A stretch of DNA of 64,000 nucleotides. It comes from an uncultured Eubacteriales bacterium (GTDB lineage Bacteria > Actinomycetota > Coriobacteriia > Anaerosomatales > JAHIQC01). A program made the position numbers and the translations under genes. Positions 27,953 to 28,055 of the stretch are shown here, piece after piece (the first letter of the stretch is position 1; each line of letters opens with the position of its first letter). The notes beneath the pieces are model-generated. The model was not told the DNA's origin, ran no database searches, and was given only the letters and a program-made list of their open reading frames with translations. Location of the stretch: positions 47,391 to 111,390 of the forward strand of contig CAZMFQ010000009.1 in NCBI GenBank assembly GCA_964565645.1. Reading direction: 5' to 3'.

Positions 27953-27967
27953 GCAATACGCGTGCCA
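27953..27967 (-). promoter_or_regulatory. Sigma-54 (-24/-12) promoter of nifHDK operon
   Basis: The minus strand reads TGGCACGCGTATTGC, a perfect TGGCAC-N5-TTGC, 66 nt upstream of the nifH ATG. Confidence 0.7.
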
Positions 27968-28036
27968 AGACGACACATGCTTTGACCTGCGGTTCTATCT
28001 CGCATGGCCGAGGTGTGGCCGACAGTTAGGTAGGGT

Positions 28037-28055
28037 CGTGCGACATTTGTGTCGC
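28037..28055. promoter_or_regulatory. Candidate upstream activator/operator dyad shared by nifH and nifB promoters
   Basis: CGTGCGACATTTGTGTCGC is identical to 19782-19800. Core dyad GCGACA-N4-TGTCGC. Its centre is about 81.5 bp from the GG of the -24 element. Confidence 0.5.

Follow-up and report, generated by a model that had tools for sequence, protein, structure and literature searches.

Gene content of the nif locus

We analyzed a stretch of 64,000 nucleotides (the window, 64 kb) from an uncultured Anaerosomatales bacterium of the class Coriobacteriia (Actinomycetota), which carries nitrogenase genes, a gene for a NifA-like regulator, and two copies of a short inverted repeat, the dyad GCGACA-N4-TGTCGC, each placed upstream of a -24/-12 promoter, one at nifH and the other at nifB. 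The first predicted target of these elements is an operon on the minus strand at 19819-27887 with the order nifH-nifD-nifK-nifEN (fused)-nifX-PII-PII-ferredoxin, as in the Coriobacteriia and Nitrospirota loci that we compared, and the second is a short form of nifB comprising the radical-SAM domain only (18709-19650, minus strand), followed by ABC-transporter and TOBE-domain genes. At 313 aa, NifB scores below the cut-off for full-length NifB (315 vs. 343.65 bits). NifE and NifN are fused into one protein of 877 aa (21398-24031), and the two PII (NifI-like) genes follow nifX; on plasmid pDV1 of Desulfovibrio vulgaris they lie between nifH and nifD.

The regulator gene, nifA, lies on the plus strand at 13336-14880. 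Its product had been described beforehand, in a preliminary description made from the sequence alone, as a NifA-like protein with GAF, AAA+ and helix-turn-helix (HTH) parts, and the Pfam domains agree with this: GAF, Sigma54_activat (the sigma-54 AAA+ domain, with GAFTGA), AAA_lid_14, and the Fis-type HTH_8, with the recognition helix TPRQLGYKMRKY. The protein passes the NCBIfam equivalog model for NifA (TIGR01817) marginally, at 538.8 bits (curated cut-off, 528.85 bits). No other enhancer-binding protein is encoded in the 64 kb, just as the NifA orthologue is the only one in each related locus, and nifA is linked to the nif cluster in the relatives as well. The GAFTGA motif is intact in 119 of 120 NifA homologues. 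The closest named homologues of the window NifA are from metagenome-assembled genomes (MAGs) of Coriobacteriia/Anaerosomatales, and so are those of the RNase R encoded on the same contig, which identifies the host as a member of the Actinomycetota. The window thus encodes, in the 13336-14880 protein, the AAA+ domain with GAFTGA loop and the C-terminal HTH expected of the cognate activator of an upstream activating sequence (UAS). Autoregulation of nifA was considered and rejected, there being neither a dyad nor a -24/-12 site upstream of this gene.

An identical dyad upstream of nifH and nifB

Both copies of the dyad lie within a 19-mer, CGTGCGACATTTGTGTCGC, found on the plus strand at 28037-28055 and 19782-19800. 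A window search allowing as many as three mismatches returned these two matches only, against 0.04 expected, and none of 100 shuffled sequences gave two, so that the verbatim 19-nt repeat at nifH and nifB noticed in the preliminary description is borne out. The 16-bp core GCGACA-N4-TGTCGC occurs exactly in the window at the nifH and nifB sites only, and both copies match the 14-mer CKACA-N4-TGTMG at 14 of 14 positions, the form in the window being CGACATTTGTGTCG. The wider TGC-N12-GCA form that had been ascribed to the element did not hold up, since the CGT flank varies in relatives and the 16-bp core alone is conserved. Matches to the dyad with one or two mismatches elsewhere in the window (12 found vs. 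10.6 expected) were dismissed as chance.

Read along the minus strand, the region upstream of nifH contains dyad I, a second dyad (dyad II), a conserved block, the -24/-12 promoter, and an AAGGAGG ribosome-binding site. Dyad I (28040-28055, minus strand), delimited by its exact repetition and its conservation, reads GCGACACAAATGTCGC, and its center lies 82 bp from the -24 GG, counted here and throughout from the dyad center to the middle of the GG. The weaker dyad II (28020-28033, minus strand) reads CTACCTAACTGTCG, has one mismatch to CKACA-N4-TGTMG, and stands 21 bp nearer to the promoter than dyad I, at 61 bp from the GG. At nifB, dyad I (19785-19800, minus strand) has the same sequence as the nifH copy and is centered 81 bp from the GG, between the ferredoxin gene (stop codon 19819-19821) and the nifB ATG (19650-19648); the dyad II position (19766-19779, minus strand), 20 bp from dyad I, reads GCACGAAACTGTCG and retains a single intact half-site. 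The recounted distances of 82 and 81 bp replace the earlier values of 81.5 and 80.5 bp, which were right to within half a base pair. The identity of the two window copies over 19 nt extends to the asymmetric spacer CAAA and to a flank that is variable in relatives; such verbatim identity between nifH and nifB dyads was not seen in the relatives, and it may reflect recent homogenization.

Sigma-54-type promoters

The promoter of nifH, TGGCACGCGTATTGC (27953-27967, minus strand), is the only exact TGGCAC-N5-TTGC in the window, and the preliminary description had called it a perfect sigma-54 element; 65 nt separate its last C from the A of the nifH ATG (27887-27885). The second TGGCAC promoter claimed there, at nifB, is also present, as TGGCACGATGCTTGT (19699-19713, minus strand), with one mismatch, GT for GC at -12 (TTGT), unlike orthologous nifB promoters, which carry TTGC. 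The GG and GC doublets 10 bp apart in TGGCAC-N5-TTGC, upstream of a gene start, are those of a sigma-54 promoter, TGGCAC and TTGC are invariant across the aligned orthologous promoters, and no sigma-70-like promoter was found near the nifH or nifB promoter. Other sigma-54-like matches in the window have no dyad: one at 31545-31559 overlaps the start codon of a small open reading frame (ORF) upstream of a PIN-domain toxin gene, a periodic series at 59349-60920 falls inside a repeat protein of 1940 aa, and a further one lies at 51550. We rejected the first two as promoters.

Conservation, spacing, and exclusivity of the dyad

Loci for phylogenetic footprinting were collected by a NifD-anchored scan with one genome per species and fell into three groups, namely 16 Coriobacteriia/Actinomycetota loci (L001-L016; NifD identity 84-95%), 12 Nitrospirota loci (74-78%), and 52 mostly proteobacterial loci (L029-L080; 66-71%). 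With at most one mismatch, the dyad was found upstream of nifH and/or nifB in most of the Coriobacteriia loci, and it was essentially absent from the other 64. A set of 15 nifH and 9 nifB promoters from the window and the 16 Coriobacteriia genomes, anchored on TGGCAC, had dyad I at 81-83 bp from the -24 GG in 24 of 24 cases: the distance was 82 bp in 10 nifH promoters, 81 bp in 2, and 83 bp in 3, and it was 81 bp in all nine nifB promoters. Conservation upstream of nif genes in relatives, which the preliminary description had named as a check, is therefore observed, with a spacing constant to +/-1 bp.

The aligned promoters share four conserved blocks, dyad I, dyad II, AAAACCGCAGGTCAGAGC, and TGGCAC-N5-TTGCG, with diverged sequence between them; the columns are 67% identical on average, with the invariant ones confined to the conserved blocks. 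Dyad II recurs 20-21 bp downstream of dyad I in the relatives, where its GTCG half is the conserved part, and one locus (L015) has two good dyads 21 bp apart. A matrix built from 27 non-redundant promoters reads S-C-G-A-C-A-(W/C)-W-W-N-T-G-T-C-G-C, in which AC at -5/-4 and TGT at +2 to +4 are invariant and A at -3 is present in 24 of 27. In its conserved position and helical phase, within the range of ~70-200 bp upstream of -24, the dyad is placed as a UAS is.

A metagenome scan used a pattern of block and promoter without the dyad (GCAGGTCA-N15-TGGCAC-N5-TTGCG) and returned 23 loci, 14 of them true modules with AAAACC context and 9 chance matches. The dyad (at most one mismatch) was present at 80-82 bp in 13 of the 13 modules with sufficient upstream DNA and in none of the nine chance matches. 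All 13 of the 14 modules with a readable downstream gene precede nifH or nifB. Being homologous to those of the window, these promoters show conservation and restriction to nif rather than independent origins. Furthermore, in 291,488 bases comprising the 64-kb window and ~20 kb around the locus of each of the 16 relatives, 18 of the 20 exact matches to CKACA-N4-TGTMG have a TGGCAC 78-86 bp away.

These counts bear on whether the repeat arose by chance, by a recent intragenomic duplication, or as a repetitive extragenic palindromic (REP)-like element without a regulatory role, for which the identity of the two copies over 19 nt, asymmetric spacer and non-conserved flank included, could be adduced. 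We regard this as extremely improbable: the number of copies expected was only 0.04, and more than 35 promoters with diverged flanks have kept the element. Abundance irrespective of sigma-54 promoters, the pattern by which the preliminary description would have recognized a REP-like element, is not what we see, as the 64 kb contain just two copies and nif promoters account for 18 of the 20 in 291 kb.

A conserved block between dyad II and the promoter

In addition to the dyads, a non-palindromic block with the family consensus AAAACCGCAGGTCAGAGC is near-invariant in the Coriobacteriia nifH and nifB promoters (L001-L016, L084-L105) and ends ~11-15 nt upstream of TGGCAC. The nifH copy, AGAACCGCAGGTCAAAGC (27979-27996, minus strand), ends 11 nt upstream of TGGCAC, and the nifB copy, recognized from the aligned promoters, is AAAAACAGCAGGTAGAAGG (19725-19743, minus strand). 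The block is not present in the Nitrospirota or D. vulgaris nif promoters compared. By eye, it fits neither the consensus of integration host factor (IHF), WATCAANNNNTTR, nor the actinobacterial GlnR-box pattern. The block may be the site of a bending protein or a co-regulator.

The nifB palindrome

At nifB, dyad I is the center of a perfect palindrome (19776-19809, minus strand; sequence and fold), whose arms measure 15 bp and whose loop measures 4 nt. It folds at -39.7 kcal/mol (z = -4.1), and its right arm, in window coordinates, stops 9 nt short of the ferredoxin stop codon, a position 9 nt downstream of that codon on the minus strand. This raises the alternative that the palindrome terminates the upstream transcript or stabilizes its 3' end (ferredoxin at nifB, a 137-aa ORF at nifH), its location upstream of a promoter being incidental, and similarly long, GC-rich palindromes do occur in related nifB intergenic regions, right after the ferredoxin gene (L002, L006, L007, L009, L015, L084, L095, L101, L103, and L105). 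We consider this alternative very unlikely. The nifB stem-loop has no U tract on the minus strand and thus lacks the stem plus U tract of an intrinsic terminator, the palindromes of the ten related regions are likewise without one, and the nifH copy has arms of only 6 bp, no U tract, and no terminator that we could find. Furthermore, the comparable palindrome is in most relatives centered on dyad II (CCGACC-N4-GGTCGG), not on dyad I as in the window, yet dyad I stays 81 bp from the promoter; the gene upstream of nifH varies among genomes, whereas the dyad-promoter distance does not; and what is kept is sequence, with conserved ACA and TGT positions, and not pairing alone. An additional role at nifB is plausible, in that the palindrome may be a NifA site at the DNA level and also, in the RNA of read-through transcripts, a 3' stem-loop. 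An Rfam search gave no RNA family at the nifH or nifB site.

Relation to canonical NifA sites and NtrC enhancers

The canonical NifA site TGT-N10-ACA is present upstream of nifH in nearly all of the proteobacterial loci (L029-L080), and 41 of their nifH promoters yield the consensus tTGTCG-N6-C(G/T)ACAa; most copies lie 104-110 bp from the GG, and others are found at 89, 119, 129, and 166-186 bp. We did not find TGT-N10-ACA in the nifH and nifB upstream regions of the window or in the Coriobacteriia promoters, save for three overlaps with the promoter's own TGGCACA, and the earlier statement that the element does not fit the proteobacterial NifA consensus is correct in this respect. The two kinds of site are nevertheless alike in their half-site pentamer (TGTCG/C(G/T)ACA), in their overall length of 16 bp, and in being enhancers of sigma-54 nif promoters that go with a GAF-AAA+-HTH NifA, which in the window is the predicted binder. 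They differ in arrangement, TGTCG-N6-CGACA in the canonical site vs. an everted CGACA-N4-TGTCG here, and in distance from the GG, mostly 104-110 bp vs. 81-83 bp. The recognition helix has TPRQ-(G/A)Y in both, followed by YRIQTM in Proteobacteria vs. YK(M/I/V)xKY in this clade. From these sequences we infer that the two HTH domains may be oriented oppositely, relative to the dyad axis, to those of proteobacterial NifA. A TGT-N11-ACA between dyads I and II was considered as a canonical-like site and rejected, since ACA-N4-TGT is constant among lineages, unlike the spacing of the two dyads, which ranges from 18 to 23 bp.

The preliminary description had placed the element closer to NtrC-type dyads. 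This we cannot uphold, as the half-site is that of canonical NifA and the TGC...GCA flanks are not conserved. NtrC enhancers have a pair of dyads upstream of glnAp2, separated by a few helical turns, and the likeness is one of layout: a strong and a weak dyad, spaced by about two helical turns, precede a -24/-12 promoter. Such a tandem arrangement, by analogy, fits cooperative oligomer assembly. The NtrC site itself, TGCACC-N5-GGTGCA, is different, and NtrC has a receiver domain where the window regulator has GAF.

Prior prediction of the motif and its distribution

Although the dyad had been presented as a previously undescribed element, the same motif, C[T/G]ACA-N4-TGT[A/C]G, was predicted in 2015 upstream of the nitrogenase operons of five Desulfovibrionales and assigned to a one-component NifA-like enhancer-binding protein, DVUA0143 (Kazakov et al., 2015, BMC Genomics 16:919; PMC4641369). 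The sites listed are 14-mers, mostly paired 18-23 bp apart, such as CTACAAAAATGTAG, CGACATTTATGTCG (D. magneticus), and CGACCATTTTGTCG (PMC4641369). We found the motif again on pDV1, with CTACAAAAATGTAG at -435 of nifH, a second site 18 bp downstream, and TGGCACATCCCTTGC at a distance of 106 bp from the first dyad. The GAF-type enhancer-binding protein encoded on this plasmid passes TIGR01817 and is 44% identical to the window NifA over 96% of the length, which is the same level as between the window NifA and proteobacterial NifA. Their HTH segments, LLAALRRNGWIQHKAARELGLTPRQMGYRIRQW (pDV1) and ITAALRRYGYVQARAARALGITPRQLGYKMRKY (window), have the common pattern AALRR-G-Q-AAR-LG-TPRQ-GY. For this comparison we used the translation of the pDV1 gene and not the published string for DVUA0143: in the text copy of Additional file 2 (PMC4641369), the string beside DVU1949 is the translation of the pDV1 enhancer-binding protein (L081, 1483-3030) and that beside DVUA0143 does not match, so that the two labels appear to be swapped. 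The 2015 paper is the only one in which we found DVUA0143 mentioned, and our literature search found none on nif regulation in Coriobacteriia.

The window agrees with the Desulfovibrionales in the identical 14-bp pattern (CGACATTTATGTCG in D. magneticus vs. CGACATTTGTGTCG here) with its AT-rich spacer, in the pairing of sites (21 bp apart at nifH and 20 bp at nifB), in a TGGCAC-type nifH promoter, and in a one-component GAF-AAA+-HTH regulator that passes the NifA model. It differs in the host, Actinomycetota vs. Thermodesulfobacteriota, in its GC-rich flanks (GCGACA/TGTCGC), and in the distance to -24, which is 106 and 88 bp in D. vulgaris vs. an invariant 81-83 bp here; additionally, the Coriobacteriia have the extra block and a second module at nifB, and the regulators are only 44% identical. 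The window dyad is thus a new instance of a computationally predicted motif and not a new kind of element. What is new here is the Actinomycetota host, the base-pair-exact spacing, and the conserved block.

Similar sites extend beyond these two lineages. Nitrospirota nifH promoters have GCTACA-N4-TGTAG(C/G) or a plainer ACA-N4-TGT, in pairs 19-21 bp apart, upstream of TGGCA(C/T)-N5-TTGC. NifA homologues with 60% identity to the window protein occur in Thermodesulfobacterium geofontis and in a Syntrophorhabdaceae MAG, where they lie amid genes for glnA, glutamate synthase, amtB, and PII and not amid nif genes, and pairs of ACA-N4-TGT 18-19 bp apart are found in the adjacent intergenic regions (L106 8380-8480 and 14150-14190; L107 9950-9990 and 13240-13330). 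One of these pairs is directly upstream of a TGGCAT-N5-TTGC site. This suggests that, in some lineages, the NifA clade regulates nitrogen metabolism more generally. What all of the motif loci have in common is the regulator clade and not the nif genes, and this is the best available argument that the NifA clade binds the motif.

NifA as the probable binder

The preliminary description had proposed the element as a UAS for the NifA-like protein, and this part of its reading stands, given that the dyad is conserved, fixed in position, confined to nif promoters, and linked to a sole enhancer-binding protein; what falls is the claim of novelty. With the sequence, conservation, and spacing of the dyad, its exclusivity to nif, its linkage to nifA, and its identity with the motif at NifA-associated promoters of other phyla all directly observed, we consider it likely, on this comparative evidence, that GCGACA-N4-TGTCGC is the strong site of a two-site NifA enhancer at sigma-54-type nif promoters. 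NifA is the most likely binder of both dyads, and the combination of C(G/T)ACA, the canonical NifA half-site, with a TPRQ-GY helix counts in its favor.

A different regulator must be weighed against this, in that the dyad could be the operator of a nitrogen- or redox-responsive repressor or co-activator, with NifA binding elsewhere or acting from solution. NifA is a deduced binder, and the second conserved block between dyad and promoter means that a further factor may act. In addition, RegA/PrrA-type regulators of Rhodobacter, which bind through a Fis-type HTH, recognize GCGACA-N3-TGTCGC-like 15-mers (PMC5359404). The hexamer half-sites are near-identical to those of the dyad and in the same orientation, and a Fis-type HTH is found in both candidate binders. 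The RegA spacer is N3, however, as opposed to N4 in every copy here, which sets the dyad apart from a RegA operator, and the dyad is coupled to sigma-54 promoters, without an associated RegA-type response regulator. Several further observations make a different regulator unlikely. Sigma-54 promoters need an enhancer-binding protein and there is no other conserved upstream dyad at which one could bind; a center ~82 bp from the GG (near -106), in constant phase, is where an enhancer is expected and not a promoter-overlapping repressor; genes of the NifA clade accompany the motif in four lineages, with non-nif targets included; the half-site equals that of canonical NifA; and the related loci share no further regulator gene beside the cluster.

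Bacterial enhancer-binding proteins bind upstream dyads as dimers, form a hexamer, and contact sigma-54 through GAFTGA by DNA looping, with ATP hydrolysis driving formation of the open complex. By analogy with this established scheme, a NifA dimer on dyad I and a second dimer on dyad II, the weaker site 20-21 bp (two helical turns) downstream, would together nucleate the AAA+ hexamer, which would touch the sigma-54 RNA polymerase held in a closed complex at TGGCAC-N5-TTGC ~82 bp away and open the promoter at the expense of ATP. Activator and polymerase would then sit on fixed faces of the helix with the DNA between them sharply bent; it is the short, invariant spacing amid diverged spacers that points to a face-of-helix constraint and a tight bend. 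The AAAACCGCAGGTCAGAGC block, ~15-32 nt upstream of TGGCAC (approximately -41 to -58 if the GG is -24), could be the seat of the bending protein or co-regulator, and the two modules would drive the nifHDK-EN-X-PII-PII-fdx operon and nifB, respectively.

Several points weigh against this interpretation. A distance of 82 bp lies toward the lower end of the range for DNA looping, and the true specific regulator could bind the block instead. Counts among homologous promoters measure conservation and not independent events; in two nifH promoters (L004 and L011) the dyad is degenerate and departs from the 14-mer at 2-3 positions, and the internal nifB promoter is missing in some genomes. The motif class, the 2015 assignment included, is a computational prediction only. 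Furthermore, an RpoN-box ORF search did not find rpoN in the window or in the ~20 kb available per relative, a result that says little at this coverage, and two surveys describe Actinobacteria/Actinomycetota as being without sigma-54 (PMC12316311; PMC3162934). That the host possesses sigma-54 is accordingly a presumed step of the model, for which the invariant -24/-12 elements and the intact GAFTGA argue by indicating a functional system.

A more far-reaching version of this model is offered only tentatively, as we hold it to be possible but somewhat short of an even chance. Here, the NifA of an anaerobe clade (Coriobacteriia, Nitrospirota, Desulfovibrionales, Thermodesulfobacteria, and Syntrophorhabdia) would read the proteobacterial pentamer with turned HTH domains on an everted dyad, and in Coriobacteriia it would do so together with sigma-54 and a block-binding factor that bends the 82-bp loop.

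Other features of the contig

A complete Calvin-cycle cluster lies on the same contig at 43454-51478, with genes for a split transketolase, the large and small subunits of RuBisCO, a CbbX-like AAA+ protein, FBPase, phosphoribulokinase, and a class II aldolase. Cultured Anaerosomatales are reported to be without RuBisCO (PMC9686372), and in view of this difference the host may belong to a lineage of autotrophic diazotrophs. A tmRNA gene (Rfam, 158 bits) and smpB are found on the minus strand with a PIN-domain toxin gene between them (30402-30754, 31686-32153, and 30837-31560, all minus strand); the toxin gene is preceded by a small antitoxin-like ORF, whose start is the TGGCAC-like match at 31545. 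The ORF of 1940 aa at 58129-63951 (minus strand) encodes RCC1 repeats, Ig-like domains, and three CWB2 cell-wall-binding domains, and its repeats with a period of ~520 bp gave rise to the periodic sigma-54-like near-matches. The 4.7 kb at 51480-56250 have a lower G+C content (0.62), no long ORF with high G+C at third codon positions, and no Rfam match.

Implications

These results provide a testable cis-regulatory map for the nitrogenase genes of uncultured subsurface Coriobacteriia, consisting of two dyads, a block, and a -24/-12 promoter at exact spacing. In the engineering of nif genes, the compact 82-bp enhancer-promoter unit together with its own activator could be an orthogonal part. Additionally, the 2015 prediction for Desulfovibrio, the nif promoters of Nitrospirota, and the glnA-type operons are joined as one putative everted variant of NifA recognition. 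If the system is functional, these Coriobacteriia are a probable exception to the published view that Actinomycetota are without sigma-54-dependent transcription.

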